Origin: a virus
DNA: 64,000 nucleotides
Virus record (IMG/VR): IMGVR_UViG_3300032278_000002
Location: 1 to 64,000 of that record
Direction: 5' to 3' (one strand)
Shown: piece after piece, positions 32,067-56,068 of the stretch
Layout: each line of letters opens with the position of its first letter
How positions within the stretch are numbered: the stretch's first letter is position 1
Translations under genes and position numbers: made by a program
Notes under the pieces: model-generated
What the model saw: the letters and a program-made list of their open reading frames with translations, nothing else
Databases searched by the model: none
Told to the model about the DNA's origin: nothing

Positions 32067-32280
32067 ACGCTCGATTAAACCCCAAAAGCACCGGGACACG
32101 AGCAAAAAGTTTGAGAATGCTCCGACTAGAGACGCCCTATGTTATACTCGTACGCAGGCAAAAGAGCAAACCCCCCTTGCCCCCCTTCCCTAGTGGTATG
32201 GTTTGGGTAGTACCCTACCACAATCTCCTTGCTTCGGCTTATAGTCTAACCGCAACAGAAACCAAGTGACCAACAAAACA

Positions 32281-32878: not shown

Positions 32879-32885
32879 AGGGGTA

Positions 32886-32902
32886 TGACCTGTGGACATC
32901 AA
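32886..32902 (+). promoter_or_regulatory. TGACCTGTGGACATCAA motif, intergenic copy 1
   Basis: CTGTGGACATCAA identical at 33784 and 35114; inverted near-copy at 50569-50585. Confidence 0.7.
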
Positions 32903-32944
32903 TGCAGGGCATCCATTTTAACCACTAACCACGAGGATATAATT

Positions 32945-33184
32945 ATGTTCTGTCTCTATTGTTTCGGGAAGTTCATCCAAACTTTGAATGCACTCCCAAC
33001 ATTCCATGACCTTGGTCCAGACCCAGTCACGGACCACATCGATGCCGACAAGGATGGCATAACCCAATGGATTCCCTTGGGCAAAACCGATGCCTTGTCT
33101 CCGTTGGTTGTCGAATGGGAAGACAACCCACCACATCCAAGCCCAGCCGAACGGGCTGAACTGCTTGAGGAGCTACGCTCATGA
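32945..33184 (+). CDS. Hypothetical protein
   Basis: GAGG upstream of ATG 32945; ATGA overlap with next gene. Confidence 0.6.
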   Translation: MFCLYCFGKFIQTLNALPTFHDLGPDPVTDHIDADKDGITQWIPLGKTDALSPLVVEWEDNPPHPSPAERAELLEELRS

Positions 33185-33483
33185 AGTTCAAGACCTTGAG
33201 CTGTCAAACGATGACCAAGAAAGAACTCAAGACAATGCTCAAGCTTGAGGTTGCCTTGTCTCTTGATGACATCAAGCAACTCAAACGCATCCTTAGCAAG
33301 GGATGCCATCCCGACCATCACAAGACTCTCGGCTTGTCGAAGAAGACTTGCGAGAGGTTGATGAAGGATGTGAACCAACTCATCAAGGACTTGGAGGACT
33401 GCACTATCCTCCACGACTCCATGGTTCGACAACTCGATGAACGAGGGCTTCATCGAGGGAACACCAAACTCCTCAAGGAATAA
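33181..33483 (+). CDS. Hypothetical protein
   Basis: GAGGAG upstream, coupled start. Confidence 0.7.
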   Translation: MKFKTLSCQTMTKKELKTMLKLEVALSLDDIKQLKRILSKGCHPDHHKTLGLSKKTCERLMKDVNQLIKDLEDCTILHDSMVRQLDERGLHRGNTKLLKE

Positions 33484-33719
33484 CACTTTGCTTTTCATCA
33501 CCATGCGTTACATCACAAAGTCCTCGGCAGTGAGGCACAATTGGGAGGATTGCCTTCATGTATTAGCTCTAGGAACAGAGGAGGGTGGCACCCTCGGGCA
33601 AACAGCCGATAGCAAGGAGAAAAACGGGTTGGCTCATGACCAATCCAAGCGAGAGGTACGCTTTAGTGTAATGCTACGGCTAGATAACCAAGACCTCGAA
33701 GTATCCGAGCGGGTTCCAT

Positions 33720-33770
33720 CTCCTCGGTGGTTGCATACCACCGAGGAGAGCCTGTTTACCTCACTTTATT
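33720..33770 (+). terminator. 12-bp hairpin, terminator-like
   Basis: ctcctcggtggt-tgcat-accaccgaggag; T-rich tract is displaced and imperfect. Confidence 0.4.
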
Positions 33771-33783
33771 TAAGGGGTGACAA

Positions 33784-33796
33784 CTGTGGACATCAA
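33784..33796 (+). promoter_or_regulatory. CTGTGGACATCAA motif, intergenic copy 2
   Basis: Exact 13-mer, preceded by GGGG and followed by TTTTAACCAC as in copy 1. Confidence 0.7.
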
Positions 33797-33843
33797 CGCA
33801 CAACACCCCTTTTAACCACACCAACATCGAACAGAAAGACCAA

Positions 33844-34425
33844 ATGAATATATATCTAATGCTACTACGACTCGTTCTCGCAGTCGTTGACCTTGCCAAG
33901 AAGCACAGACTCAAGGCGAGGGAGATTGACCCAGTCCTTCAACTTGTCAGCGATATCTCGGAGGCAACTGTCCATGAGGAATGCCACCGCGAGACTCTGA
34001 GTGAACGAGCCACTACTCTAGCCAACGAGCTCGCCACCGCTATTGATGACCTCGACCGGAAATACAAAGCTCAAGAGCTCACCGAGGAACAGGGGTGGAA
34101 AGAGCGGAGGTCACTCCACACGCACATCGGACAAGCACGGGAGCGGGTGAAAGAGATGGGTAACTTGGACGAGCACAAGGACATCTACAAGGCGGTGGCT
34201 ATCTACGAGCAGGTGCTGATAGAACTTTGCGTCATGTTCCCTCGCACCAATGTACCGCTGGAGGTCGACCGCCGGAAAGGCTCGGGTACTATAAATGCCT
34301 TCCCCGAAGGAGTACTGCCCAACGGTGACACCATCCATGTTATAGAAGCTGACGGCACGGGTGCGGACATCTCCGACCTCGAAGCCTTTCGAACCGCAGC
34401 TAACAACAAGGGAGACCAATCATAA
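33844..34425 (+). CDS. Hypothetical helical protein
   Basis: 193-aa ORF, TAATG coupling to next gene. Confidence 0.75.
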   Translation: MNIYLMLLRLVLAVVDLAKKHRLKAREIDPVLQLVSDISEATVHEECHRETLSERATTLANELATAIDDLDRKYKAQELTEEQGWKERRSLHTHIGQARERVKEMGNLDEHKDIYKAVAIYEQVLIELCVMFPRTNVPLEVDRRKGSGTINAFPEGVLPNGDTIHVIEADGTGADISDLEAFRTAANNKGDQS

Positions 34426-34700
34426 TGGGTAAACCAAATCACTCACCGAAGGGTAAGGGCCGGAACTGGTGGTATCGCATCCGCAACATCCGAAAGGACC
34501 AAAAGGACGCCGCAGACCGCAACACCCACAAGAAATTCGTTGCGGAGGAGGAGAAGAAGAAGGAGAGCCGGGAAGCATCCATACCATCCGTCCTCCCCGA
34601 ACGCCTGCGTAACATCGGCCCAGTTAGCCCGAAGGCTACCACCAACTGGTTTGGCAAAGCATGGTCTGGCGTGAAGGGTGCTTTAAGGGGGAAGTCATGA
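34425..34700 (+). CDS. Small basic hypothetical protein
   Basis: GGAG upstream; coupled on both sides. Confidence 0.7.
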   Translation: MGKPNHSPKGKGRNWWYRIRNIRKDQKDAADRNTHKKFVAEEEKKKESREASIPSVLPERLRNIGPVSPKATTNWFGKAWSGVKGALRGKS

Positions 34701-35029
34701 AGGTTACGGTAGGACTCAAGATGGGCGAAGGTGTCGCTGGCTTCCTGTTCAAGTTAGGCGACCTCGTCCTTGAAAACTCTTACTCGAACATTTCGGGTGG
34801 ACCCAATGCCAAGGAGGACATGGAGGAAGCCATCGAGGCTTTCATCCGTGAGATGCGGGAGCTGGGTCATGAAATCATCGTTGACCCAAGCATCATCGCC
34901 AAACTCAAGGAAACTTATCCTTACTTCAAGCTCCCTTCCCTCGAGAACAAGGGACCATACGATGATGCCATGGCAGATGCGGATATCGAGGAAGCAGGGG
35001 AAAACCTCGCAAAGGATTGGGTAGATTAA
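34697..35029 (+). CDS. Small acidic hypothetical protein
   Basis: ATG 34697 in ATGA overlap. Confidence 0.7.
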   Translation: MKVTVGLKMGEGVAGFLFKLGDLVLENSYSNISGGPNAKEDMEEAIEAFIREMRELGHEIIVDPSIIAKLKETYPYFKLPSLENKGPYDDAMADADIEEAGENLAKDWVD

Positions 35030-35057
35030 TGTTTGACCTTCGCCCCTACCAACACAC

Positions 35058-35101
35058 GACCCAGCTCATCATCGCCATGGTGAGCTGGGTCACCTTTTTT
35101 T
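35058..35101 (+). terminator. Intrinsic terminator
   Basis: gacccagctca...tgagctgggtc, then T7. Confidence 0.75.
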
Positions 35102-35110
35102 GGGGGATTT

Positions 35111-35126
35111 CGCCTGTGGACATCAA
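35111..35126 (+). promoter_or_regulatory. CGCCTGTGGACATCAA motif, intergenic copy 3
   Basis: Same hairpin, T-tract, GGGG, motif, TTTAAC arrangement. Confidence 0.7.
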
Positions 35127-35146
35127 TTTAACAACACACCAATAAC

Positions 35147-35473
35147 ATGAAGAAGCTAAAATATATTTGCGTCTACTTGCACGGCACGACCCTCCTTGAC
35201 GACTGCCTTCCCCACGAAGCCCAACTTGTTCCCCCATTCAATCCTCAAGCCGTGTGGGATGCTGGTGTGGAGGAGATGAACGAAGCCATGCACCAAGTCG
35301 GTAATAACGAACGCAGTCGGCTACTGGCAACGTTGCTCATGCGTTTCCAACAATTTCTTCCGTCCCATGATGCCATGATAGCATTGAATGGCGTAGCCAA
35401 GCTAATGCATGACACGGACACAACGAACGGAACCGTAATTATTATTCGTAAAGACGGGAGTACCCGTCTGTAA
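35147..35473 (+). CDS. Hypothetical protein
   Basis: Starts after an A/C-rich leader. Confidence 0.7.
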   Translation: MKKLKYICVYLHGTTLLDDCLPHEAQLVPPFNPQAVWDAGVEEMNEAMHQVGNNERSRLLATLLMRFQQFLPSHDAMIALNGVAKLMHDTDTTNGTVIIIRKDGSTRL

Positions 35474-35498
35474 CAACCAAAAAGAAAGACCAAGACCA

Positions 35499-35990
35499 AT
35501 GACAACACCCAATGATACCGACATCCGCTCTGATATTGAGCAAGAAGTCGATGAAATACAGAAGAAGAACGACAACCAACTAGTCAATCAACTGCGAGAA
35601 CTGCGGGAGGGAGACCAATTCATCTCGACCGGTGGTGACGGATGTGCTTTCACCCAGCATCTCAAGTTCTTGATTCTCTTTGGAGGCACCCTTGCCGAAG
35701 AGATGCAGGCCAATCCTCAAGTAATGGGGGACAAGGAAAGCGAGAAGATACTCTTGGGCTTGGAAGTCGCAATCGAGGGAATCAATCACATCCTCACATT
35801 ACCCAGTCAATACGATGTGATTGACAGACTCATCGACCGAGTCGAAGCCTGCGATGCCGAACGCTCCAACCTTCTCAATGCAGTCGGACAGCAGGAAGCC
35901 GGAGGCGAGGCTGTCTACTTGGAAGATTGGAAAAAGGACGGCTCACTTCCCTTCACCTTCCCATCCGGAATCGGGAGAGACCAATCATGA
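35499..35990 (+). CDS. Acidic hypothetical protein
   Basis: 163-aa ORF, ATGA overlap with next gene. Confidence 0.75.
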   Translation: MTTPNDTDIRSDIEQEVDEIQKKNDNQLVNQLRELREGDQFISTGGDGCAFTQHLKFLILFGGTLAEEMQANPQVMGDKESEKILLGLEVAIEGINHILTLPSQYDVIDRLIDRVEACDAERSNLLNAVGQQEAGGEAVYLEDWKKDGSLPFTFPSGIGRDQS

Positions 35991-36763
35991 CAGTACTGGA
36001 TACAATACTAGCGACCTTCATCCTTGTGGTGCTTGGGTTCACGCTTCGTGGTTTGGTGGCTTACGCCAGTGAACGCCAAAGACTAAGGCTCCCCAAGCCA
36101 GTTCATGAGGACAAGGCATTCCGTGACAAGTTGGACTCAATCAAACATGAGGACAATGTCATAAGCTTCTTTGATGACCTCGGCCCTCCTCCATCCCAAC
36201 TTGATATCAGCGGTTTCATGCATAACCATCGTTCGGTTGAGGAGTATCAACTCTACGGTATTCGCCGCTGCTGTCGGCTGCTCCTCGACCCAATACATCC
36301 ACACAGCGAGGATTGGCCTTGGAGATGCCGAGCACGCTTGGGAGGTGTCTCCGGTTACAGGGGAAATCGCTTCCACTCCCTGCCCAAGAAGGTTCTGTAT
36401 CAGCAAGCCCTTGAGTATTTGTCGGAGAATGCATCGCACCACCAGCTCCTTGATTGGAAAAGCTTCTACCGCAACCACCCCGAAGAAGAAATTGCCATGA
36501 TAGCGGAATCCCAATCAATGGGCGGTCATAGCATCCCCGAAATGTCCAAGGAAATATGCCAAGCTCTCGGATCAATGCTCACCCCCCGCCAACAACTCGA
36601 CACCTTGTGCAAGGAGATATTCCCCGACATGGAACCGTACGCCGCTCGCTCTCGATTCCGATGGTACAACAGGCGATGGGTGCAAACCCATGACGAGGCA
36701 GGGACGCCTGTGGACATGGCAGACAAGGCAATCGAAAAGGGAGGACACCACGATGTCAGTTGA
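35987..36763 (+). CDS. Hypothetical protein with N-terminal transmembrane segment
   Basis: MTVLDTILATFILVVLGFTLRGLVAY from ATG 35987. Confidence 0.7.
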   Translation: MTVLDTILATFILVVLGFTLRGLVAYASERQRLRLPKPVHEDKAFRDKLDSIKHEDNVISFFDDLGPPPSQLDISGFMHNHRSVEEYQLYGIRRCCRLLLDPIHPHSEDWPWRCRARLGGVSGYRGNRFHSLPKKVLYQQALEYLSENASHHQLLDWKSFYRNHPEEEIAMIAESQSMGGHSIPEMSKEICQALGSMLTPRQQLDTLCKEIFPDMEPYAARSRFRWYNRRWVQTHDEAGTPVDMADKAIEKGGHHDVS

Positions 36764-37019
36764 CAACATATTGAAGAGAGCGGGGTTTCATTCCCCCGAC
36801 CAAGTGAAGGAACATCTCGCCTCGATACCTAGTTCGGTCGATGGCGTCATTGGCTCCCGAAAATTCATTCATGCTCCCAGTTCCCGTCTCGTGAATGCCT
36901 TGCTGTACCAAGGAATCAATCATGTCACGCCGTTGATGCCCGGTGAGGTAAACACGGGGCGTGCGTGGAGGTGCCCGACCAACGAAGTTCGTAATTACGA
37001 AGGAGGTTACTGTGAATAA
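36753..37019 (+). CDS. Hypothetical protein
   Basis: GGAGG upstream of ATG 36753. Confidence 0.65.
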   Translation: MSVDNILKRAGFHSPDQVKEHLASIPSSVDGVIGSRKFIHAPSSRLVNALLYQGINHVTPLMPGEVNTGRAWRCPTNEVRNYEGGYCE

Positions 37020-40000
37020 GTTTCTTAAGAATCTCGAGAGGGACAACCTCTACCCGTTGGGGCGTGACGCAACCCTGTCCGATTGGAAGTCGGGCAGGTT
37101 CGTTCGCATGTTCGCTCCAAGTAGTTGGTACTCATCAATGAGGCACCGAATGGATCCCGATGCCGACCACCCAACGGGCCCGCACCGAGTAGGCGGCCAA
37201 GGTATTACGCACTCCAGTAAAGCCTCCCTGCACTTGCCTAGTTGGTTTCATGAATCATACGACCTTAAGTGGAACGCAAATGTTTGCGGTAGACCCCTCG
37301 CAGTAAGCGAAGGGCAAAACTTCAATACCTCTTGGGGAACGAATGGCAAGAAAGATGTATTCAAGGATGATTTCCATGGTGTGCTACCCGAAGGCTACTT
37401 GTTAATTCCCCACGACTTCTTGATAGGGTCTGAGCCAAGGTGGGAATCTCCCCTGAGCCTGTTCGAATACCCATTCTATGCACCGTTCGCCACCCTCACC
37501 TCCTTGTTTCATGACTCGGGAGCCAGCATAGTGGACAAGTGGGAGTTGGAAGATGAGTCAAAGGGGTACGAAGTACGCTATCAACGGGAGCTTGTATCCA
37601 AAATCAATGCCAAGTGGTGGGTCGGCAAAGCCAAGACCTGTCGTCACAAGATTGAATACATACTCAAGTGGTTGCGAGACCCCACGCTTGACCTCCGCGT
37701 GAGGTGGGGAATCACTCCCAGCGATCAATTGAAAACTAGCAAAGAGAGATTCACTTGCACTGACGTGGCGGAATTGTGGAATTCCTATGACAATCCGGAA
37801 GAACCCTACGCTTTGCGGTATAATCTTAGGAATGACTACGGTCACCAAAGAAAGGATCCAGACCAGACTAGTGGCAAGCACCTCGATGGCACCAAGAGCA
37901 TAATCTACGGACGGAGGTTTGAACTGAACAGCGACCGCGTGCGATTGCGTATCGGGATGATGCCTCGCTTGAAACAGTACATTGTCTGCAAGGACACTTA
38001 TTCACCTGCATTGGCCGCGCCTTGCAAAGAATATAAAACTGATGCAGTCGCCAGTCGCAGGGAGACTGGTTCATGGGACGCAACGCGCTTCCGTGCTCAT
38101 CCCAACTACAATGACGCCCAAGACCACCTCTTCACTACTCCCATCAACTTGTTGGGAGTGTTCGGGGAACAGCGCAACTCCTTGATCAAGGACAACCTTT
38201 GCTACAAAGCTCATACGGATTCACACTATCGCAGCCCCAAAAGGTCTTGGTTCTATGTCAATACGCCCGTGCCAGATGCAAAGAGCGAGCACGGCCGTGT
38301 TAGAACAACGCTCGAGCTGGGCTGGACACACATTCGTTCGTTCAACTTGTGTTTCAAGCGGGTTGGGCAGGGACTGTATGAGTGGAAGGATTTGGGATGG
38401 GAACTCCCCGAGGAATCATATGACCCGCCGGGAGCTGAAACCAATACAAAGGCGGACAATCAACTCATGGCCGTTCGGTGGCTCACCGCACGTATGAACA
38501 AGGAGTTGAAGGGACGTTGGTATCTGCGAACAACTGGGCCCGCTTACACAAACCTCCCAATTAAAGGCACGAACAGAAACAGCACCCATCAACAGATAGC
38601 GTGGCTCGGCGAGTGGATCAACATGCTGGAGACGTTGATGGAAACTGACCGCCGAGGCGCCGAGTACTTGGCTCTGATGATGAACCAACTAATTGACCCG
38701 AAAAGAACAACTGGTTGGGACAGTCCCCGGTATCAATTGAATGCCGAGATGAAATTCATCAAAGGCAGTCACCCCGGTCGCCTTCGAAAATTGATAAATG
38801 ACCCCAATATACTGACACCGCCCACGGGCTTGCCCGATTCTGAGAGAGAATCACTACACAAAGCACGCAACGTGTTCTATAAGTATCTTCCAGCTTTTAC
38901 CGTCAAAATGTTCAAGAAAGCGAAAAAGGATTACCTCAAGCAGAGGCATCATGAGGATTGTGACCAAGTCTTGACTTGCAAATGCCCACCCAACGGAGGC
39001 TTGAATATTTCCTACAAGTACTTGAAGCAGTTATATCGCAAGAGATGTAACCTAGCCGTCAAGTGGCACATATCCGACAACGACTGTCAAAGTGGAAAAG
39101 TATTCAATGCATTGACTGGTTCCCTTGTCGTCCTACTCCCTCGAAACAGGGTATCTCATAAGCAGAGCCGAGACGGACCCACGATACTCAATACCATGAA
39201 CGTTGATTATTCCGGCGGATTCATTGTGTTGTCCAACGGAACCTTGGATTCAATGCACGTGTCCGAAGCTACCGGTCACCATCAGCGGGGACAATATCCG
39301 GAAGGGGATTCTCCGCCATTCGCAGGGCCCGTGAGGTTCAGATGCACCGTTGATGCGGTAAGGGCTTTCCGCGATCCATATGTCAGCGCCTTGTCCTCCA
39401 AAGAATTCAAAGGATACCCAGCCACGTACGCATACGACCGCCCCTATTGCGTGGTAAGGAAATCAGAGAGACAATCAACCCCCGACTGGTTGTTGGTTCG
39501 ATCCCATGCCAGCGTGACCGAGGTTCGCCCGAAAGAAGAGATAGCTCATGACCTCCGAGTCCATCAAATTACGTACGATAGGCTCAAGTTGGAACTGGCC
39601 AATGGCGTGGATGCCGCCGGCATGCCGCTGAGCAAGCGATCTCGGTTGGATTATGTGAACTGCTACCTCCCTCGGTTGGAGAATCAACTTAAGTTCCCTC
39701 GGGAATTCAACCAACACAGGGTGTCCAAGGGGTTTGACGAACAACTTCAATTAACTAACTCGATAGGTCAGCTTTACCACGACCGATCAATTGGACAATT
39801 TCCGGTCATGAGTACGGCGTATGCAGTGCTATTTATGCCTGTGGACATGTTCGATGCCTCTCCAATGGAAATATACAACTGGATGAAAGATTATTGTGAC
39901 AAGTTGATCACCCGCTCCCTTCGCAGTCGCAGGTATTGCTACGCCAATTGCGTGTGGCAATCACTACATAAGCTACGGTGGTGGGCCAAGTCTTTTGGGC

Positions 40001-40203
40001 TGACTCGGAAATTCAACCGCCAGTTTCCCATGAACAAGTTGGAGAATATATACATGAAACAACTGATTCGGTACCGAGTGAAAAATTTATGTCCGCTTAC
40101 TGGGCGGCCAATGAACAGAACAACAAATGTAGATACCTTCCGTGAACGCGAGGGGTATGTACGAAACGTAAAGGAAGAAGAAATATGGAAATACCAACGC
40201 TAA
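37012..40203 (+). CDS. Large (~1060 aa) basic, aromatic-rich protein of unknown function
   Basis: AGGAGG at 37001 before GTG 37012; no family motif recognised. Confidence 0.85.
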   Translation: MNKFLKNLERDNLYPLGRDATLSDWKSGRFVRMFAPSSWYSSMRHRMDPDADHPTGPHRVGGQGITHSSKASLHLPSWFHESYDLKWNANVCGRPLAVSEGQNFNTSWGTNGKKDVFKDDFHGVLPEGYLLIPHDFLIGSEPRWESPLSLFEYPFYAPFATLTSLFHDSGASIVDKWELEDESKGYEVRYQRELVSKINAKWWVGKAKTCRHKIEYILKWLRDPTLDLRVRWGITPSDQLKTSKERFTCTDVAELWNSYDNPEEPYALRYNLRNDYGHQRKDPDQTSGKHLDGTKSIIYGRRFELNSDRVRLRIGMMPRLKQYIVCKDTYSPALAAPCKEYKTDAVASRRETGSWDATRFRAHPNYNDAQDHLFTTPINLLGVFGEQRNSLIKDNLCYKAHTDSHYRSPKRSWFYVNTPVPDAKSEHGRVRTTLELGWTHIRSFNLCFKRVGQGLYEWKDLGWELPEESYDPPGAETNTKADNQLMAVRWLTARMNKELKGRWYLRTTGPAYTNLPIKGTNRNSTHQQIAWLGEWINMLETLMETDRRGAEYLALMMNQLIDPKRTTGWDSPRYQLNAEMKFIKGSHPGRLRKLINDPNILTPPTGLPDSERESLHKARNVFYKYLPAFTVKMFKKAKKDYLKQRHHEDCDQVLTCKCPPNGGLNISYKYLKQLYRKRCNLAVKWHISDNDCQSGKVFNALTGSLVVLLPRNRVSHKQSRDGPTILNTMNVDYSGGFIVLSNGTLDSMHVSEATGHHQRGQYPEGDSPPFAGPVRFRCTVDAVRAFRDPYVSALSSKEFKGYPATYAYDRPYCVVRKSERQSTPDWLLVRSHASVTEVRPKEEIAHDLRVHQITYDRLKLELANGVDAAGMPLSKRSRLDYVNCYLPRLENQLKFPREFNQHRVSKGFDEQLQLTNSIGQLYHDRSIGQFPVMSTAYAVLFMPVDMFDASPMEIYNWMKDYCDKLITRSLRSRRYCYANCVWQSLHKLRWWAKSFGLTRKFNRQFPMNKLENIYMKQLIRYRVKNLCPLTGRPMNRTTNVDTFREREGYVRNVKEEEIWKYQR

Positions 40204-41276: not shown

Positions 41277-42574
41277 CACGGATAAACGTAGCACCAACAT
41301 CAGCTCCCCTCAGCAAAGAGGACCAGAAAGACCTTATCGACAAGGGCACCCTCCGAATCAGACGCATTCAATGTCGGAAGCTGGTCATGGAAAAGCCCTT
41401 TTGGGCGGCGATCATGTATCAATTGTTGATGTCGGTTCGCATGGGAGAGGGCACTGCTTGGACGGACGGCCGCCGACTGGTGTTCGATGCTCAATTCATC
41501 GACTTGTTGACCGAAGAACAACTACTCGGACTCATCCTACACGAACTAGCTCACGTGGTGTTCATGCACCACCTTCGCCGAGGACCCCGGGACGGTCAAC
41601 TCTGGAACATGGCGGCTGATTATTGCATAAATTGGCTGTTGGTTCATGTCGACAGTCAAGTCCTGCCCGATGGGGCTCTTCTCGAGGATGAGTACAAGGA
41701 TGACACGGCTGAACAAGCTTACGCCAAGTTGTACAAGAAATATCCGCCGCCGCCGCAGGGGCATGGGAACCCTCCCGGACCTTGCAATGGTGGGCTGGGA
41801 GGTCAGCAACCACCGGGTGTGCCCGGCGTACCTGGCCAAGATTGGGGCGAAGTACGCGATGCGACTGGGGAAGGGGACGTAAAATTAACCGATTCCCAAA
41901 AGAAAGCGGCCGAGCAGCTGATGGCAGTGTCAATTCGACAAGCGATGAACACCGCCAGACGCCAAGGCAAGATGCCGGGTGGCTTGCGGGAGAAATTCGA
42001 GGGGTTACTCAAACCTACCGTTGATTGGAAGAAAATTCTCAACGACTTCTTGTCAGAAAGATTCCCCTTGGATTACAGTTGGACCACGGTCAATACTCGA
42101 CGCAGCCTCCCCGACTCCTGCCTCCCGGGCAGGGACGGAATCCAATGGGCACGGGTTGCCGTTGCCATCGACACGTCCGGTTCCGTGACAGTGGATGAGA
42201 TCCGGCAAATGTGCTCGGAGATAATGCACTGTCTGGACTGCTATGATTCAAATGGTCAAGGGATGGAAATTGACGTCCTTTACTGTGACACTGAGTTACA
42301 CGGCCATGAAACACTGACGTCCGGCGACATGCCGTACCAAGAAATCAAGGGAGGCGGAGGCGGTACCATGTTCTCTCCAGTCATGGAGGAGTTCAAGGAC
42401 CGTCAATACCTCACCGAAGACCCAGCCGCCTTGATCTACATGACGGACGGCTGCTGTGATGATTTCGGGGATGATCCCGAAATCCCTGTCCTCTGGATGA
42501 TGGTCGGGGATTACTATAATAAAACATTCAAACCACCGTTCGGCACTGTTAGCCGGATGGAACTTGCTAACTAG
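41273..42574 (+). CDS. DUF2201-type metallopeptidase-vWA protein
   Basis: AWTDG, HELAH (HExxH), WNMAADYCIN; MIDAS DTSGS, GGGGT, YMTDG. Confidence 0.9.
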   Translation: MTRINVAPTSAPLSKEDQKDLIDKGTLRIRRIQCRKLVMEKPFWAAIMYQLLMSVRMGEGTAWTDGRRLVFDAQFIDLLTEEQLLGLILHELAHVVFMHHLRRGPRDGQLWNMAADYCINWLLVHVDSQVLPDGALLEDEYKDDTAEQAYAKLYKKYPPPPQGHGNPPGPCNGGLGGQQPPGVPGVPGQDWGEVRDATGEGDVKLTDSQKKAAEQLMAVSIRQAMNTARRQGKMPGGLREKFEGLLKPTVDWKKILNDFLSERFPLDYSWTTVNTRRSLPDSCLPGRDGIQWARVAVAIDTSGSVTVDEIRQMCSEIMHCLDCYDSNGQGMEIDVLYCDTELHGHETLTSGDMPYQEIKGGGGGTMFSPVMEEFKDRQYLTEDPAALIYMTDGCCDDFGDDPEIPVLWMMVGDYYNKTFKPPFGTVSRMELAN

Positions 42575-42584
42575 GAAAGGAAAA

Positions 42585-43556
42585 ATGACTAAGCTACATA
42601 TGGCTACTAGCCAAAACGACCCCAGAAATGGGAAAATACTACAAATCGCCAAGCTCAAGGGACTTCGTCCCCACTTCACCAAGTGGGTCAACGGTATTCT
42701 GATTGAGCAGGGCTTCGTTGACTCCGATGGAACGGCTAAGGGCGGATTAGGCCACGCTGTCCGTGGGCCTTTGGTCGGTGACGACCGGGTCGAGGAGTTC
42801 TACGATAGAGTAATCAATGGATTGGAGGCCGTTGAACCTCTTGCGCCCGGAGATCCCTTGCCCGAGGGACATCCGTTTGCAATTCCCCTCGCCGAGTTGA
42901 TGGCAGGAGAAAAGGAGACGCCTGTGGACCGCACGAGCACAATAGAAAAATACACGGCTGACTCCGAAGAAGTTGAAGCCCATTCCAAGAATGATGGCGA
43001 GGTTCGAGGCGTTGACAGCAAGGTCGATCCGCTCGATGCCGCTCAACCCTGCCCCGAGCTGGCTTGCCAAGTGGATGAACAAGTCGGTGACCCAAATCCA
43101 TTGGCCCACGTAACTGCTGATGAACTCGATGGTTTCCGGGAATTCATGACGGGAGCTAAGGATACTGCCAAGGAAGCGCTCAAGGAAGTGGTTGTTCTCG
43201 GTGAATCCAATATGCTCATGGAGGGGAGACTCTCCGCTTTGGAGCAACAAAACTCCGCTCAACGACTCGACAAGGTCGAAGACATACTCGGGAATTGCTC
43301 GAATCCGTGTCAAGGTGATCCCGACGAGACTCCAGCTCAGACACTCAATGTGATTGAGGCCCGACTCAGCCAAGCGGAGGTATCTCTCCAAGACTTGGGG
43401 GACTCTCTCCCCGGGGGAGCTAGCAATCGTGATGGCGCGGACATTGCTGCAATTACCGCAAGCATAACGCACGCCGTGCTTGATGAAGTAGTCAAGCTGT
43501 GTGTTACCCGTAACGATCTTCAAGTTTTACTCAACCTAAATAAGGAAGGCAAATAA
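42585..43556 (+). CDS. Acidic coiled-coil hypothetical protein
   Basis: ATG 42585 after AGGAAAGGA; RLSALEQ/RLSQAEV heptads. Confidence 0.75.
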   Translation: MTKLHMATSQNDPRNGKILQIAKLKGLRPHFTKWVNGILIEQGFVDSDGTAKGGLGHAVRGPLVGDDRVEEFYDRVINGLEAVEPLAPGDPLPEGHPFAIPLAELMAGEKETPVDRTSTIEKYTADSEEVEAHSKNDGEVRGVDSKVDPLDAAQPCPELACQVDEQVGDPNPLAHVTADELDGFREFMTGAKDTAKEALKEVVVLGESNMLMEGRLSALEQQNSAQRLDKVEDILGNCSNPCQGDPDETPAQTLNVIEARLSQAEVSLQDLGDSLPGGASNRDGADIAAITASITHAVLDEVVKLCVTRNDLQVLLNLNKEGK

Positions 43557-44416: not shown

Positions 44417-44990
44417 CCTAAAAACCAAAAGAAAGAACAGAATAGTGAAAACAATAGTAGAAAAACCAATAACCGTACGTGATCGCGTACGGAATGTAAT
44501 AGAGAATAACTCAACACTTCCCACGCTGGACGTCATGTCGCAGGAAATGGGAATAAACAAGGCGAACCTATCCAATGAAATCTCGGTCATGCGAGGCTTG
44601 GGGTGGTCAATTGACATAATTGGCGAGAGGGGCAATCCCCGAGGTTACGTGGTAACTCCTCCTCACACCACATGGACCCCGGATGAAAAGAGGAGCTCAC
44701 TAGCTCGGTCAATGGAGCAATCGGGAATATATCGAGCGGAAGATGGAACGTTTCGAGCTGACCAGAAGAAGAAGGCCAAGAAGAAGCAACACCGGAAAAC
44801 AAGGCGAGAGCTTGCGGGAAAGCAACTGCAAGAAACAATTGCCCGACGCCGGAACCCGCAGCTCGACATAATACTGCACGTAACTGACTTGGATGCCAAG
44901 CTGACCCGGTACGCCAAATACTTCGTAGTTCTACTGGGGGTGATATCAGTCAGTATCGCCGCCCTCGCAATACACACAATAATCAACTGA
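44406..44990 (+). CDS. Winged-HTH protein with C-terminal transmembrane helix
   Basis: TLDVMSQEMGINKANLSNEISVMRGLGWSI...RGY; YFVVLLGVISVSIAALAI. Confidence 0.65.
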   Translation: MPFNLKTKRKNRIVKTIVEKPITVRDRVRNVIENNSTLPTLDVMSQEMGINKANLSNEISVMRGLGWSIDIIGERGNPRGYVVTPPHTTWTPDEKRSSLARSMEQSGIYRAEDGTFRADQKKKAKKKQHRKTRRELAGKQLQETIARRRNPQLDIILHVTDLDAKLTRYAKYFVVLLGVISVSIAALAIHTIIN

Positions 44991-45010
44991 TCTGGGAGGA
45001 TCACATCAAT

Positions 45011-45646
45011 ATGGCTATAAAAACCAACAACGCATTGTCAGCTTTCGGTAAGAAGGCGGCAACTACATCAACGAAAGTCTACTCAAAGCTACCGGACCCG
45101 GACGGCACTATCTCCAAGATGGTCGACCAACGGGTGGATTGCGCTAGCACCGAGAAGGCCGCTTCCGGCACCAAGAAACAAATCGATGGTGTCTTGAAGA
45201 ACTACGGCCTCGATACTTGGGTGGATAACAACGAGGATAAGGACCTCACCGAGGACACGTTCCAAGCGGACGGCAAGTCCGGCTCGGTGAAGGTCATATT
45301 CACCAGCCGTTATTACGACCTAACCATCGACCGAGAAGATCCGAAGTCAGCCCAACGCCTCAGCGAAATCCAATCACTGTTGGGCCTATCATACGGACGG
45401 TTCGTCACGGAGAAGTTCAAGCTGGACGTGGATGGTTCCGCCATACCGGCCGACCAACAAGAAGACTTCCTCGGCGAGCTCGCGGAACTTCTCGAGAAGC
45501 ACGGATCCAACCCGGCGGAAGCTGTCCAAGTGAAGGAGGTGCTGGCCATCAGCAAGAAGTTCCATGGGGAACGACACTCCATACTGTCCCAAGAAGAGAA
45601 CAAGCACTTCCACGACTTGTGGTCCTGTGTAGTGGCGGTAAAGTAA
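45011..45646 (+). CDS. Hypothetical protein
   Basis: GGAGG upstream; strong codon bias. Confidence 0.8.
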   Translation: MAIKTNNALSAFGKKAATTSTKVYSKLPDPDGTISKMVDQRVDCASTEKAASGTKKQIDGVLKNYGLDTWVDNNEDKDLTEDTFQADGKSGSVKVIFTSRYYDLTIDREDPKSAQRLSEIQSLLGLSYGRFVTEKFKLDVDGSAIPADQQEDFLGELAELLEKHGSNPAEAVQVKEVLAISKKFHGERHSILSQEENKHFHDLWSCVVAVK

Positions 45647-46374
45647 TGCAAGACAACATTCCGGGATTACTACCAACGGACCCGGATTCATTACCGTTCT
45701 TCCATCAGCGTCCCATGACGGGTGGAAGATTCGAGCAGCAGTTGGGGTTCATCCCCCAGCTGCTTAGCTTGAAGTATAACGGCTGGATGGCTCTTATCCA
45801 TCTGACATCCATGAGGATGTTCAACCGACATGGTCAGCCGTTAAGCATCAGTGATGAGTTCGCATCCGTCATCAATACGTTGAGCAGACACTCGATCCGT
45901 ATTCCGCACCAGCAATCCGATCCAGCGTGGCTTGTTTGCGAGGCACTCCAACGTCGACATGACATCGGGCGAGGCTCTTTGTTCGTAATTGACTATTGGG
46001 ACTGCCTTTCCACTCAGGATCCACATGCTGGGACGCATTGGAAAAACTCAAAGGGACGTTACTCGGCAGGGACCAGCAAATCCTCGATGCATGCTCCTCC
46101 ATTCATAGAGCGGCATGAAAGGCTGAGGACCTTTCTCCCTGTCCATGACTGGAGAGACAAGCCGCGGGAAAACAACGTGTATCTCATTGATCAATTCGCG
46201 GCCTCGGATGAAAGGGCCACGGATATCTGGGAAGAAATCCCCGAGGTCAATGAACGTTGGGGCTGTGAGTTCTATGAAGGATTCGTGGCCACGCAACGCA
46301 ACAGTCAGCTGAAACCGCAGTACAACTCAAACAACAAATGTAGCCATATTATAAAGTATAGACATGATAACTAA
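45646..46374 (+). CDS. ATP-dependent ligase-like nucleotidyltransferase domain, divergent, no OB domain
   Basis: LKYNGW (KxDG-like), FNRHG, VCEAL, FVID, PFIER, EGFV. Confidence 0.65.
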   Translation: MQDNIPGLLPTDPDSLPFFHQRPMTGGRFEQQLGFIPQLLSLKYNGWMALIHLTSMRMFNRHGQPLSISDEFASVINTLSRHSIRIPHQQSDPAWLVCEALQRRHDIGRGSLFVIDYWDCLSTQDPHAGTHWKNSKGRYSAGTSKSSMHAPPFIERHERLRTFLPVHDWRDKPRENNVYLIDQFAASDERATDIWEEIPEVNERWGCEFYEGFVATQRNSQLKPQYNSNNKCSHIIKYRHDN

Positions 46375-48877
46375 TGAAAATCCAGTACTAACCTACTCCA
46401 TTGACGGGTTGATTCAAATCAACTTGATGGATGACCAACGAGTCGAGCTCGGCAAGGAGTGGTGTGAAAAACTCGAGTGCTTCGATGGCAAGATCGCCGA
46501 AGAAGTTATTCGTGAGCAATACTTGAGGGAACATGCTCAAGAAATAATAGATGCCTATAACGATGACTTGTTCAAGATAGCAGTATCAGTCGAGATCAAG
46601 TTGAACGTAGCGTTAAAGGCATACGGGAAAGCCTGCGCTCCATTGATGCCCCCAACTGACTATGAGCTCATCGCCTACGTGGATGGGTTGCAGAAGGGGT
46701 TGGTTTGTGACGACGCCGTATCCGGCATGTCGTTCACCAAGGGATGGACATATCCTGTCCGCACGGAATTCTTCGAGTATTCGGAGAAGTTCGTAGTCAA
46801 TCGTCCTTATTACGATGAAAAGACCAAGAGCTATCTGAAAAAGAAGCACCGGATCAGCCGTAAAGGGAAGGATCGAGCCATCGTTGTTCGGGACGACTTC
46901 GGCGAGGAGAACTACTTCTTGGAAAAGCCGACCCTGTTTCCAACGAGCCGGCTGCCCTCGAATGGGCAATACAGACTGCACGACATCGATTGTATGTGGC
47001 TGGCTTTCCAACGGCCTAAGATATCCACGGTCAAGGAGACCTTGAGAGAAACGTATGATGATGTGATCAATCGGCTCGAGGTATATGAAATGATGTGCGG
47101 ATTCGAATACTATGAAGGTCAGCGAGATTTCATTGCTCGCATGGCGTGCCGGGACTTCGGCATAGTGGGCGCCGCCTGCGGATGCGGGAAATCCTTGATG
47201 GCTATCACATTGATGAAGGTGAAGGAGGATGCCTTGAAAATCTTACTCATAGCACCGGCATCAACTGTGACCAGCGGAAATGGGTACACTCCCGCTCAAT
47301 GGGCGCAAGAGTTTGCCGACTTCGCTCCCGACATCAACACCTTCGAGTTGTTCTCGTTCGATCACTACGAGTTGTTGAAGAAACGGTACAAGGGCAAGCT
47401 GCCCCCCGGAGTGTACATCACTTACCCCGAAGCCATGTTTACTTCGGGCGCTCGGGAGTACTTACCGCAAACATGGAAAGAGGAAGGCCGAAAGGATCCT
47501 TGGCTGGTCGAACGAAAGTTCCGGAAAATCATGAAGATGCCGCCTGTGGACGAGGACAATCTCATACATGAGGAGCAGTATCACAAGGGGCTTGGACAAA
47601 CTTGCGGAGAAGGGGAGATACTCTGCGTTGCGAAACCTAGTCTGAGTTCGGTGGTGTCCCAAGAACAAGGCGACTTCGACATGATCGTATTGGACGAGGC
47701 CCACACCGTGGCGGCGAACATAAAGTCACAGAGAGGTCGCGCGTTCCTTCGAATGCAGTCAAAGTACCGGTACTGCCTATCGGCTACTCCCATTCCCAAT
47801 AATATTGGCGACTTGTTCGGGATAATGGGATGGGTCACCGTTCCCAAGTGGTACAGGGGGAACAAGCGCTCAGTTAGCTTCCCTTACTCAATTGAGCAAA
47901 AGGGTAACTTCGAATCCGCTTACTTGACCTACGAAGATGACTTGACCGCCACCATGCGAGCATCGGTCAAATATGTCAAAGGTCGGCAAAGAAGAGTGCG
48001 AAGACGGTCCAACATAGTGAGTCAACCCACTAGCCTGCTCAAACTACTGAAGCCTACCATTGGATATGTTGACAAAAGCGACTGTCGGAACGACATGCCC
48101 AAATGTATCATCAATGAAGTTAGGGTTCCGTTGGGACAAATACAAGCGCGGGCGTACCACATTGCCAAGAGTATGGCGAGAGGGGCCTTTGCCCGATACA
48201 GCCAGCTTAGGCAAGTGTGCGCGGACCCTTCCGCTTATGGATCGCCTCCGGAAAATCCAAAAACCATGACCGTGCTGCAATTAGCGCTGCAGTGTCTCGA
48301 GAAGCACGAGCAGGTGGTAATCGTGTCGGCACGCCACGGAATGACCAACGCGTTGGAGGAAAAATTCTGGGAGTCTGGAGTAACGACTTCTCGATTGGAC
48401 GGGTCTATGTCGTCGAGAATGCAAAGCCAAGAATCACAGGATTTCAAGGATCAACGAACACAGATTATGTTGATGGGAATCAAATGTGCGATGGGTCATT
48501 CCTACCCGCAGTGCCCCAACTTGATATGTACGAGCTTGGAGTGGAGTTACGGCACCAAGGAACAAGCCTTCGGGCGTGTGTTCAGAGTCAACTCTCCCAA
48601 GACAGTCAATATCTGGTGTGTGCTGCATGCGGAATCCATCGAGGATACCATGTTCTCCCGAGTCAGCGACAAACAGGAGTCAGCATTGCTCTGTCTCCAT
48701 GGAAAACGAATGACTCGCACACCCAAGTTCTCCACACCGGAGGACATCTTGGCGGAACACCTCATTGATTACGCCGCCGGGGAAACGATAGATGAACAAG
48801 TTTGCATAAGGGAATGGCCGTCCTTACGCACCAAGCTTGCCGATGCGGCCCAAATATTCGACCCAACACTAGCATGA
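46364..48877 (+). CDS. SNF2-like helicase/ATPase with N-terminal extension
   Basis: GCGKS, LDEAH, LSATPIPN, QLRQVCADP, QAFGRVFR. Confidence 0.88.
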   Translation: MITNENPVLTYSIDGLIQINLMDDQRVELGKEWCEKLECFDGKIAEEVIREQYLREHAQEIIDAYNDDLFKIAVSVEIKLNVALKAYGKACAPLMPPTDYELIAYVDGLQKGLVCDDAVSGMSFTKGWTYPVRTEFFEYSEKFVVNRPYYDEKTKSYLKKKHRISRKGKDRAIVVRDDFGEENYFLEKPTLFPTSRLPSNGQYRLHDIDCMWLAFQRPKISTVKETLRETYDDVINRLEVYEMMCGFEYYEGQRDFIARMACRDFGIVGAACGCGKSLMAITLMKVKEDALKILLIAPASTVTSGNGYTPAQWAQEFADFAPDINTFELFSFDHYELLKKRYKGKLPPGVYITYPEAMFTSGAREYLPQTWKEEGRKDPWLVERKFRKIMKMPPVDEDNLIHEEQYHKGLGQTCGEGEILCVAKPSLSSVVSQEQGDFDMIVLDEAHTVAANIKSQRGRAFLRMQSKYRYCLSATPIPNNIGDLFGIMGWVTVPKWYRGNKRSVSFPYSIEQKGNFESAYLTYEDDLTATMRASVKYVKGRQRRVRRRSNIVSQPTSLLKLLKPTIGYVDKSDCRNDMPKCIINEVRVPLGQIQARAYHIAKSMARGAFARYSQLRQVCADPSAYGSPPENPKTMTVLQLALQCLEKHEQVVIVSARHGMTNALEEKFWESGVTTSRLDGSMSSRMQSQESQDFKDQRTQIMLMGIKCAMGHSYPQCPNLICTSLEWSYGTKEQAFGRVFRVNSPKTVNIWCVLHAESIEDTMFSRVSDKQESALLCLHGKRMTRTPKFSTPEDILAEHLIDYAAGETIDEQVCIREWPSLRTKLADAAQIFDPTLA

Positions 48878-49893
48878 GTATTAACAAAGCAGTTAACGCG
48901 TGGTCCGAATGGTTGGGGGAGACTCTCTCCCCCGCCCTTCGGGACACATATGAAAAACGACTGAAAGCTTTCGCCAAGAGGCGGAAGCTCAAGGACGTCA
49001 CTTGGAAAACCATCAACCAGTTTCTGAGAGACAAAGGCAAACGCGGGTTGAAGTACAGTACGATCAAGCAATATATCAGCGCTTTGAAAAGCTTCTGCAA
49101 ATTTGCTTACGCCGAGGGCTTGCTGGACAAAGACCCGTCTTCACTGATAAAGATACGGCCGCAAACCTTAGCCATACGACAGCTCGAGGATGAGCCGCGT
49201 GTTCCGTTCACCTACGACGAGTATGAGTCAATCTTGGCGTACGTCACGATGTGGGAACATGGGGCAAAGCAGATGAAGACACGGCAATGGGCCACCTTCT
49301 GGAAGATTGCGGTTCCCTTGTCGTACTGGACGGGAGTTCGTCTGCATGACTGCGCTTGCCTCGAGGTAGGTAATTTCTATTACGAGTTGTTTGACTACGA
49401 GCTGCCGAAATTTGCAGGCATGCTTTTTTGGACGAAGAAGAGAAACAAGAGGGTCTTTCTACCACTGGATAATCCGCTGATAGGTCACCGTCATTTGGTG
49501 GACATACCGAACCAATTGAAAAGAAGGTCATGGATCGCCGCCGCCTCCGGTGCAGTATCCCACCAATACGGAAATGCCGAGAAACTGGACGATCTCAACG
49601 GGGAGTTCTATTTCCCCCTGCAATATAGACTTATCGACTCTCCTCAAAGAAACCAATTCTCCCAGCGATTCAAAAGAATCACCGACTCGTTGGGCATCCA
49701 TGGAAAAAGTTTCCATTGCCTAAGGCATTCGTTCGCCACCCGCTTGGAAGAAGCTGGCGTAACTTACGAGGATATCGCTAGATTTATTGGACATGGTCAA
49801 ACGATAACCACCCAAGGGTATTGCCACGGGCAAGAGTTGCCCGATTTAGGTATCCCGAACCAAGCTAGAAAATTCTTCAACCCGAAATACTGA
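48874..49893 (+). CDS. int: Tyrosine recombinase/integrase
   Basis: SAM-like N-domain (STIKQYISALKSFCKF), TGVR, FHCLRHSFAT, IGH, TTQGY; catalytic residues appear intact. Confidence 0.93.
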   Translation: MSINKAVNAWSEWLGETLSPALRDTYEKRLKAFAKRRKLKDVTWKTINQFLRDKGKRGLKYSTIKQYISALKSFCKFAYAEGLLDKDPSSLIKIRPQTLAIRQLEDEPRVPFTYDEYESILAYVTMWEHGAKQMKTRQWATFWKIAVPLSYWTGVRLHDCACLEVGNFYYELFDYELPKFAGMLFWTKKRNKRVFLPLDNPLIGHRHLVDIPNQLKRRSWIAAASGAVSHQYGNAEKLDDLNGEFYFPLQYRLIDSPQRNQFSQRFKRITDSLGIHGKSFHCLRHSFATRLEEAGVTYEDIARFIGHGQTITTQGYCHGQELPDLGIPNQARKFFNPKY

Positions 49894-50162
49894 TGACTAA
49901 AGTAAACTACAAAGTAGGCACCCGCTACCCGTATCGCTGTTCTAACTGCGGACACTCGGGACGTGCGCGCCGTCGATATCACTGTTCCAACTGCGGACGC
50001 ACGGGGCATAACAAAAGGAACTGCCCGGAACCGGAAAACAAATACAGCTGGGTTTTGACAAAGGAGTACGAGAAATATCGCGTATTCATAAGAAGTTTGC
50101 CAACATGGATGACAAGCCGATTTCCGATATGGCATCCGAAGAACCCGAGGAATGTAACATGA
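49893..50162 (+). CDS. CCHC zinc-knuckle protein
   Basis: CSNCGRTGHNKRNC fits C-x2-C-x4-H-x4-C; TGATG/ATGA coupling. Confidence 0.7.
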   Translation: MTKVNYKVGTRYPYRCSNCGHSGRARRRYHCSNCGRTGHNKRNCPEPENKYSWVLTKEYEKYRVFIRSLPTWMTSRFPIWHPKNPRNVT

Positions 50163-50371
50163 ACATAGACATCTACTTACACGACCCAAAAGCCCACGAC
50201 TCGTACTACGCTTTGCCGAAATGCATAGATTGCGATGAGGAATTGGACGAAGATCCGCAAGAACTACCGGATCCCGTTCGATGTCCGGATTGTCATGCTA
50301 ATTCGGATAACGTTCTTGATGATACCGAAGAAATAATAGATGCCTTGACGGCTCAAGGTCGGTATCCTTGA
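50159..50371 (+). CDS. Small acidic zinc-ribbon protein
   Basis: CIDC...CPDC; ATG 50159. Confidence 0.65.
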   Translation: MNIDIYLHDPKAHDSYYALPKCIDCDEELDEDPQELPDPVRCPDCHANSDNVLDDTEEIIDALTAQGRYP

Positions 50372-50390
50372 GGTTGCGTTGTGGTTACGC

Positions 50391-50425
50391 GCCCGTCCCT
50401 CTTCGGAGGGGCGGGCTTTTTTTTT
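50391..50425 (+). terminator. Strong intrinsic terminator closing the plus-strand block
   Basis: gcccgtccctc-ttcg-gaggggcgggc plus T9. Confidence 0.92.
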
Positions 50426-50453
50426 GCTTTGATTCCAAAGGAAGCTCCATTGT

Positions 50454-50482
50454 TTGACGAATCATGCCTTCGATGGTAGAAT
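50454..50482 (+). promoter_or_regulatory. Sigma70-type promoter
   Basis: TTGACG (50454) - 17 bp - TAGAAT (50477). Confidence 0.75.
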
Positions 50483-50488
50483 ACTCTT

Positions 50489-50559
50489 TGTCTAGTTTGC
50501 CTTCGCTCTCGCGGCTGTCGCTACGCCAGACTTGCCGGCCGGGAGCGGAGGTTTTTTTT
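50489..50559 (+). ncRNA. Candidate ~70-nt small RNA
   Basis: Follows the promoter; ccttcgctctc-g-cggct pairs with ggccg-ggagcggagg, then T8; no plausible ORF. Confidence 0.55.
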
Positions 50560-50568
50560 GGATTTTTT

Positions 50569-50585
50569 TTGGTGTCCACAGGTCA
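50569..50585 (-). promoter_or_regulatory. TGACCTGTGGACACCAA motif, inverted copy
   Basis: 16/17 match to 32886-32902; its TGA is the stop codon of 50583..51332. Confidence 0.65.
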
Positions 50586-55952: not shown

Positions 55953-56068
55953 TGTTTTAGTATATTTGCGATAAGGAGATGTACCTCTGCATAGGGGCGA
56001 GTGGTCAAGATACTTAGGATAACATTAACCTCTTCTTCGGTAAGGCTCAACTGGTATTTTTCTAACAT
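55907..56068 (-). CDS. Small phage protein
   Basis: MLEKYQLSLTEEEVNVILSILTTRPYAEV; ATG 56068. Confidence 0.65.
   Translation of the reverse strand: MLEKYQLSLTEEEVNVILSILTTRPYAEVHLLIANILKQCALSKPSESSPSSD

Follow-up and report, generated by a model that had tools for sequence, protein, structure and literature searches.

The window analyzed here is the first 64 kb of the single 72,681-bp contig of IMG/VR record IMGVR_UViG_3300032278_000002, a tailed-phage genome in which a 9-bp word, CCTGTGGAC, recurs in one block of genes and always in the orientation of those genes. Counts of the word given for the genome cover the full 72,681 bp, and gene calls are greedy open reading frame (ORF) picks made for this analysis. 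The minus strand from 1 to 29.85 kb carries tail spike, portal, large terminase, family-A DNA polymerase, exonuclease, primase-like and helicase genes. It is followed by a plus-strand block (29.9-50.4 kb) that contains an RHH repressor-like gene, a RuvC-like resolvase, a DUF1599 gene, a MoxR-type ATPase and its DUF2201 partner, an SNF2 helicase, a tyrosine recombinase and many orphans; minus-strand genes start again at 50.58 kb. Genes overlap or abut over 13.6 kb, from 36.7 kb to the GC-rich hairpin and T9 tract (50391-50425, plus strand) that close the block, and thus any internal signal in this stretch must be written into ORFs.

Exact copies of CCTGTGGAC number seven in the genome, compared to 0.55 expected, and none of 100 dinucleotide shuffles reached seven. 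They start at 32889, 35113, 36707, 39838, 42921 and 47543 on the plus strand and occupy 50574-50582 on the minus strand. An eighth site at 33783 reads ACTGTGGAC; the pattern CTGTGGAC takes in this site at 33784, and CTGTGGACATCAA is exact at 32890, 33784 and 35114. Our recount agreed with a first-pass annotation of the sequence on all copy coordinates and strands, on the split into five GCCTGTGGAC and four CGCCTGTGGAC, on the spelling of the four intragenic copies as CCT-GTG-GAC (Pro-Val-Asp) and on the co-orientation of all eight copies with the local genes. The word does not mark the whole plus-strand block: no copy occurs in 29.9-32.8 kb, the part in common with a relative (L005, see below). 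There is also no additional copy between the window end and the genome end. One-mismatch variants of the word are not enriched (16 matches in total, nine of them non-exact, versus 14.35 expected), so the word is sharply defined. At 18 bits, an exact 9-bp word is just sufficient for uniqueness in a 73-kb genome, and thus a site consisting of the core only could serve as a minimal promoter or binding site. The raw count does not single the word out, as at least 24 9-mers reach seven or more with the strands pooled, most of them codon-like. In the literature, the 9-mer was found only within primers, in papers on unrelated subjects.

Three of the sites (class I, R1-R3, all on the plus strand) are built on a plan of about 37 nt: TCAC, a 7-nt T-rich tract, GGGG, 6-7 nt, the core and ATCAA. 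R1 (32866-32902) reads TCAC, T7, AGGGG, 6 nt, the core CCTGTGGAC at 32889-32897 and ATCAA, with 56 nt from the core start to the ATG at 32945. In R2 (33761-33796), TCAC, TTTATTT, AAGGGG and 6 nt precede the variant core ACTGTGGAC at 33783-33791 and ATCAA, 61 nt from the ATG at 33844, and R3 (35090-35126) comprises TCAC, T7, GGGGG, 7 nt, the core at 35113-35121 and ATCAA, 34 nt from the ATG at 35147. Each cassette is preceded by a plus-strand hairpin. The one before R1 (32839-32864) has a 10-bp stem, follows the stop of gene 32281..32826, lies 7 nt from the T-tract and was missed by the terminator scan; the one before R2 (33720-33748) has a perfect 11-bp stem and a 7-nt loop, 16 nt from the T-tract; and the one before R3 (35058-35091), identified by the terminator scan, is strong and terminator-like, with 15 pairs followed by T7. 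The stems differ in sequence, and the R3 hairpin is the only canonical intrinsic terminator of the three. The leader between each class I core and the next start codon is CA-rich. The distance from the T-tract to the core is constant (17-18 nt) whereas that to the hairpin varies (3-16 nt), which argues that the T-tract is part of the core's element and not of a terminator.

The hairpin-to-gene gaps at R1 and R3 (55-67 nt) are taken up entirely by the cassette and lack a sigma-70-like hexamer pair, leaving the cassette as the sole candidate promoter there. Nine sigma-70-like sites were detected in 29500-49400, none of them in the three cassettes. Two other assignments were considered by eye and set aside: TGGACA as a -35 element with 17 nt is a weak fit in R1 and R2 and does not fit in R3, and the sigma-54 spacing is off by two bases. 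Blastp among 26 block proteins gave no matches, and thus the similarity is confined to the cassettes and is not a by-product of gene duplication. No Pfam or PHROG family was assigned to the small proteins flanking the cassettes. RNA folds of the eight sites revealed no common structure, with small stems around the core in R1 and R2 only, and an IMG/VR scan for GGGG, a 6-8-nt gap and the 13-mer returned two chance coding matches only.

Some open frames and contig ends coincide with the cassettes. R2 is possibly within the tail of a 114-codon candidate ORF (33503..33847) that crosses the R2 hairpin and cassette and at its end overlaps gene 33844..34425 by ATGA. This ORF scores +0.14 bits per codon for coding, versus 0.19-0.36 for most genes, and 33484-33847 offers 360 nt without a confident gene. 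A 38-codon plus-strand ORF (35029..35145), whose ATG shares bases with the stop codon of the gene before it, crosses the R3 hairpin, T-tract and core, and reads the R3 core in the Pro-Val-Asp frame. Hydrophobic in its middle part, it could encode a small membrane peptide or could be a frame left open by chance across a regulatory element. In other marine runs (X3 and X13), Logan contigs stop at the R1 and R3 cores or within a few bases of them (for example X3 pieces 32000-32897 and 34104-35115), and the ends at 32897 and 35115 may be an assembly effect of the T-tracts or of the shared words.

The other five copies (class II) lie inside ORFs or on the minus strand. The core at 36707-36715 falls in the last 19 codons of ORF 35927..36763, 46 nt before an ATG at 36753 that has the ribosome site GGGAGG. 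The cores at 39838-39846, 42921-42929 and 47543-47551 encode residues 960-962 of a 1080-aa orphan (36961..40203), residues 120-122 of ORF 42564..43556 in an apparent linker, and residues 394-396 of the SNF2 helicase in a variable stretch; these three deep coding copies occupy what look like tolerant parts of their ORFs. SNF2 homologues (P0008-P0011, 57-69% identity, one of them on an 87-kb contig) read PLI, ELN or PLD where the phage has PVD, so the SNF2 copy is lineage specific. On the minus strand, the core at 50574-50582 comes directly after the stop of the last gene (50583..51332) and is followed by A-runs, about 150 nt before a hairpin at 50391-50416. Successive internal copies are roughly regularly spaced (3131, 3083 and 4622 nt). 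Overall, four of the seven plus-strand copies lie 34-61 nt upstream of a start codon, a class of sequence that makes up about 7% of the block by estimate, not simulation. No -10-like element was found at a fixed distance from the core across the copies.

Pro-Val-Asp occurs five times in block ORFs (1.27 expected from residue frequencies), and four of the five are spelled CCT-GTG-GAC, with the rarest Pro codon of the block (CCT, 16% of Pro codons). Compared to the four coding copies observed, 0.15 are expected from Pro-Val-Asp occurrences and codon usage, 0.07 from codon frequencies in three frames and about 0.17 from synonymous shuffles. In the latter null, synonymous codons were permuted within each gene in 300 shuffles and the two fixed intergenic copies were included in the totals; the block total was two in 262 shuffles, three in 37 and four in one, and the observed six was never reached. 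The word family ranks second to fourth among all block 9-mers under this null. The coding copies also extend the match in common with R3 to 11 nt. In the 51 kb of minus-strand coding DNA the word is absent (0.34 copies expected) whereas the shorter TGTGGAC is at expectation (6 versus 6.08), indicating that the sense-strand bias of the 7-mer reflects codon usage and that the 9-mer is block-specific.

These results support nucleotide-level selection on the copies in ORFs, and we conclude that the word is a real, statistically sound, strand-polarised signal. The first-pass annotation had proposed such a cis-acting signal, which is backed by the codon choice in ORFs, the exactness of the word, its restriction to a single block and its association with gene starts. 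It had also called for a codon-preserving null and had asked whether the word is equally frequent in the structural and replication arm and conserved in relatives. The enrichment survives the former and the frequencies are not equal; conservation held up less well, since the word is not kept at the SNF2 copy, and the remaining outcomes that the annotation had named as counting against a signal were not observed.

A second polar 9-mer, GGCAGGGAC, is found on the plus strand at 36697, 38366, 42128 and 46065 and nowhere else in the genome. All four copies are in ORFs, in three different frames (0.10 expected under synonymous shuffles), and they alternate with the four intragenic copies of CCTGTGGAC, the first lying immediately upstream of the copy at 36707, with one base between them. 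Their significance is borderline after correction over all 9-mers.

The sole informative relative is L005 (L007 is the same contig), with a PolA 62-64% identical to that of the phage. A contig recovered in a metagenome scan with PolA (L006) is closer, at 77% identity, but too short to reach the cassettes. Synteny with L005 extends over the replication and structural genes and into the first part of the block, as far as window position 31.95 kb. Common to both are an iteron-like cluster, an A-tract with a TTGACT promoter before the RHH gene, and an extended -10 promoter before a gene beginning Met-Ser-Lys, followed by a hairpin after that gene. Behind its hairpin, L005 has a different 12-nt word twice (L005 859 and 2255), oriented with the genes, and then unrelated genes; the contig covers about 2.8 kb behind its first cassette and ends short of the region of the intragenic copies. 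Conservation of the layout with a change of word and cargo is the pattern expected if a private signal in a variable region evolves together with its reader.

The sigma-70-like promoter region with an extended -10 (TGT-TATACT) lies at 32104-32148 (plus strand) and is kept in L005 in a by-eye comparison. It is predicted to drive gene 32281..32826, the end of which meets the first hairpin. The A-tract, TTGACT, a spacing of about 17 nt and a weak -10 are found at 29990-30046 (L005 about 5330-5385, minus-strand view) and in both phages end 6-7 nt before the RHH ATG (gene 30044..30217 in the window), a position that would fit an early mRNA without a leader.

Many marine plankton metagenomes contain DNA nearly identical to that of the phage. 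Contigs of four marine runs are nearly identical to the window and offer no variation for comparison, so they are uninformative on motif conservation. A near-identity search of the block against GenBank phages gave no match, and the SNF2 protein matched just Listeria and Enterococcus phage proteins at about 20-22% identity; this collection thus contains no cultured relative. Its best matches in prokaryote genomes (34-39% identity; L108, L109 and L116) were binned as Opitutus, Akkermansia and another Verrucomicrobia bacterium. Homologues at 37-39% identity thus fall in Verrucomicrobiota bins, a weak hint at the host phylum; phage contigs may also have ended up in these bins by chance. A generic scan for k-mers and post-hairpin motifs in 22 SNF2-bearing IMG/VR loci and the PolA relatives found polar 9-mers that look codon-driven and no clear analogue of the word.

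We tentatively propose, with a probability of roughly 45%, that the word is the core of a phage-specific promoter serving the variable part of the plus-strand block, placed both in hairpin cassettes that resemble the promoter-early stem-loops (PeSLs) of T4-type phages and within ORFs. What the analysis shows is how the cassettes are built, the statistics of the word, where its copies lie with respect to genes, that they are confined to one block and that the relative has a different word at the same place. The host RNA polymerase would start at the sigma-70-like promoter at about 32.14 kb, transcribe the early gene 32281..32826 and meet the first hairpin. Genes past this hairpin would be served by R1-R3, each just upstream of a gene group and each combining hairpin, T-tract, GGGG, spacer, CCTGTGGAC (in R2 its variant) and ATCAA. 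From 36.7 kb on, the 9-bp core alone would have been placed by codon choice in tolerant parts of ORFs (36707, 39838, 42921 and 47543), where the copies could act as internal start or factor-binding sites, probably weaker ones. The early promoters are sigma-70-like and the cassettes are not, which argues that the cassettes are not read by the unmodified host holoenzyme, unless read-through alone feeds the downstream genes. We infer that RNA starts at the word and that its reader is brought or made by the phage, either as a factor that retargets the host polymerase or as an unrecognised phage polymerase. A candidate early factor is the product of 32281..32826, the one gene between the conserved promoter and the first hairpin.

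Several observations weigh against this proposal. No RNA polymerase or sigma family was found in the 55 of about 67 ORFs scanned with Pfam and/or PHROGs, which cover all but about 12 small ones; many ORFs are orphans. The candidate early factor has a single homologue and an unusable structure model (predicted local distance difference test, pLDDT, 41), and its positional counterpart in L005 is unalignable. The class II copies have just 9-13 nt in common with R1-R3, which is little for a full promoter, and the minus-strand copy has no downstream gene. A look-elsewhere correction over all 9-mers leaves the coding-only enrichment borderline; what makes it convincing is mainly that the intergenic cassettes provide an independent definition of the word. 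The coding copies, four in number, all use one frame, which holds 47% of the chance expectation (p about 0.05), and the word in the other two frames would need Trp or Cys. In addition, a crude scan of the 22 SNF2-bearing loci revealed no comparable word after a hairpin, and no RNA run is listed among the sequencing runs with near-identical phage DNA.

Other readings account for parts of the same evidence. The word could act on a polymerase that is already elongating: in the non-template strand or the nascent RNA, it would pause the polymerase or load a processivity or antitermination factor, like ops or nut, and be renewed every 1-4.6 kb. The strict co-orientation with transcription and the roughly regular internal spacing suit such a role, as do the leader-region position of four copies and the fact that a short core would suffice, fitting the 9-13 nt common to all copies. 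However, there is no copy between the promoter at about 32.14 kb and the hairpin at 32839, a departure from ops and nut that leaves the polymerase to meet this hairpin unmodified. The upstream T-tract and GGGG conserved in R1-R3 would go unexplained, no NusG/RfaH-, N- or Q-like family appeared in the Pfam and PHROG scans (most block proteins are orphans), and a common RNA structure is lacking. Antitermination and RNA processing had both been listed in the first-pass annotation, and we keep them among the alternatives while regarding elongation control as unlikely. We find it quite unlikely that the signal is instead centered on GUG in the RNA, as a translation start (of short upstream ORFs in R1-R3 and in-frame internal starts) or as the target of an RNA-binding protein or nuclease. 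GTG is central in the word, and the four coding copies all keep the frame of the ORF that contains them; an in-frame GTG start would likewise produce the single coding frame noted above. In five of the eight copies, a G-rich, Shine-Dalgarno-like run is found 5-9 nt upstream (GGGG in R1-R3, AGGGA at 36707 and AAGGAG at 42921), a 9-codon ORF runs from the GTG in each of R1-R3, with that of R3 stopping 1 nt before the next ATG, and the L005 word also has an ATG. Yet the R1-R3 peptides are alike in their first four residues only, the equal length in R3 is due to a different stop, three copies have no run resembling a ribosome site and the minus copy leads to no plausible gene. Moreover, the two L005 ATGs are in different frames relative to the surroundings of the word, an invariant CC before GTG and GAC after it would be unusual for start sites, and no fold is conserved.

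A polar site acting in the DNA itself, such as a module-exchange recombination point, a site for strand-specific nicking or priming, or something bound by the tyrosine recombinase or SNF2 protein encoded in the block, would agree with the direct repeat copies that flank groups of ORFan genes and with the loss of similarity to L005 shortly before the first cassette (the last stretch in common reaches about 31.95 kb). PeSLs are reported to mediate such shuffling in the cited parts of PMC2839356 and PMC4122927. Recombination among copies inside SNF2 and other ORFs would, however, destroy genes, inverted pairs of the tyrosine-recombinase type are absent, the word is not tied to replication direction, and 9-15 nt of identity is short for homologous exchange; contigs of the four other marine runs contain no joints between copies, with the proviso that contigs drop rare forms. 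A DNA-level role of this kind appears improbable as the main function of the word, and a promoter word may in addition serve recombination or nicking, as has been proposed for PeSLs. A Chi- or KOPS-like function, one of the options in the first-pass annotation, is not supported: the word is confined to 18 kb and is not over-represented along the whole replicon, with none in the other 51 kb of coding DNA. Titration or regulation by host DnaA, another of its options, fits poorly and is very improbable. The resemblance itself is there, since on the opposite strand seven of nine bases coincide with the box core and all eight copies are within two mismatches of the M. tuberculosis/S. coelicolor box (PMC4285127, Table 1; compared by eye). 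The conservation pattern, polarity and distribution of the word nevertheless do not fit: the 9-bp box does not include the CC that is invariant in seven of eight copies, its positions 1-2 vary (AT in five copies, then GT, CG and TC), the 7-mer common to word and box is not enriched elsewhere, the copies follow transcription and are spread over 18 kb instead of clustered, the iteron-like cluster at 31.5-31.8 kb uses a different word, and the sole host hint is to Verrucomicrobiota and not to Actinobacteria. Among the named options, a transcription regulator or promoter fits best. It could also be that the copies have no common function, R1-R3 being copies of one regulatory cassette and the coding copies chance codon triples. 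The borderline corrected enrichment, the similar raw counts of other 9-mers and the loss of the SNF2 copy in relatives would agree with this; the rarest Pro codon in four of five Pro-Val-Asp, the shuffles that never reach the observed count, the 11-nt match to R3 and the absence of the word from the rest of the genome speak against it, and we give it a small chance.

Some further features of the genome lie outside the cassettes. At 31529-31768 there are six exact copies of AATGACATGA and partial ones, direct and inverted, including a large inverted repeat (31589-31696); Rfam gave nothing other than a chance hairpin match at this repeat, and no tRNAs were found in the scan. The cluster adjoins minus-strand gene 31764..32105, and L005 has a TGACAT-type repeat cluster beside the homologous gene. 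It is probably an operator or origin-iteron region, and its core GACAT resembles part of the class I cassette. Within ORF 1639..2334, a 33-nt unit with GGCATTGGTAGTGG is present in three tandem copies (1772-1851). The minus strand at 50583-54357 encodes a family-2 glycosyltransferase, a sulfotransferase, a DUF5672 protein and a Stealth CR2 protein at low GC (0.41 in 50-52 kb); it resembles a glycan-modification island ending the minus arm, and the sole minus-strand copy of the word is directly behind it. Long orphan ORFs other than the 1080-aa one encode 1254 aa (56062..59826) and 908 aa (3426..6152).

If the word is a private promoter, it would provide a handle on gene regulation in an uncultured lineage of marine phages of about 73 kb that is widespread in plankton metagenomes and most of whose proteins have no known family. 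The word would define a temporal gene class, the variable block would be a separately controlled unit, and the sequence could serve as bait for its reader. The intragenic copies would show that tightly packed operons can take up a regulatory word through codon and residue choice alone, which would be useful for the annotation of phages from sequence only.

Promoters of phage-encoded polymerases offer one comparison. As in such systems, the word would be private, with co-oriented copies 0.9-4.6 kb apart before gene groups and a different word in a relative. According to the cited part of PMC4496689, T7-type promoters span -17 to +6 (about 23 bp), and the N4 virion polymerase uses hairpin promoters, three of them in the early region, with a 5-7-bp stem and a 3-nt loop centered near -11 and conservation from -17 to +1. 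Here, R1-R3 have about 37 nt in common while the other five copies have only the short core, and no cognate polymerase family was recognised in the ORFs scanned. The likeness to N4 extends to three hairpin-associated copies and to an ORF of N4 virion polymerase size (at least 4087 codons; G000 60417-72681, equal to L001 417-12680, minus strand) that runs off the contig end. However, the hairpins of the phage are longer (10-15 bp), unlike one another in sequence and placed 25-45 nt before the core, and the long ORF has no sequence match in Pfam, PHROG or PDB, including none to N4 gp50. The 1080-aa orphan has no IMG/VR relatives and no usable Atlas match, and a search against 1.84 billion representatives returned only itself and two marginal matches. 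A polymerase domain hidden in either of these orphans could nonetheless make the word and cassettes the promoters of an unrecognised phage transcription machine. We consider this scenario hardly probable; if true, it would mean that an N4-like strategy arose in unrelated marine phages, with an injected or private polymerase, three hairpin-associated promoters and a specificity that switches between close relatives, as the L005 word suggests.

Minimal promoters read by phage-made factors, for example the late and middle promoters of T4 and those read by gp28 and gp34 of SPO1, are a second point of reference. A single element of 8-9 bp could suffice in these systems; it may lie within ORFs and activates a later class of genes once an early promoter has been read by the host enzyme. 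The phage differs in having no recognised sigma-like gene and no -10-like element at a fixed distance from the core. The class of sigma-like and appropriation factors is named in the cited part of PMC4496689.

The closest parallel in layout is to PeSLs, which are described in the cited parts of PMC2839356 and PMC4122927 as composite terminator/promoter cassettes in the hyperplastic regions of T4-type phages. As in those descriptions, the phage cassettes are small repeats in which a stable stem-loop and an AT-rich tract accompany a conserved promoter-like sequence, and they sit between small orphan genes of a variable region, exactly where the gene content of the relative differs. Hairpins of 10, 11 and 15 pairs lie directly upstream of the putative promoter part, corresponding to the PeSL stem-loop, and the 7-nt T-rich tract 17-18 nt before the core in all three cassettes corresponds to the PeSL AT-rich tract. 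In contrast to the sigma-70 consensus promoters described for PeSLs, the phage cassettes have no -35 and -10 hexamers; their stems are neither conserved nor polyG/polyC, the 9-bp core recurs in long ORFs by codon choice and the phage is unrelated to T4. The comparison is one of layout, any promoter, terminator or recombination activity of the cassettes being putative. The parallel suggests that variable regions of phages in general are built with hairpin-plus-promoter cassettes at the flanks of orphan genes, a design not peculiar to T4.

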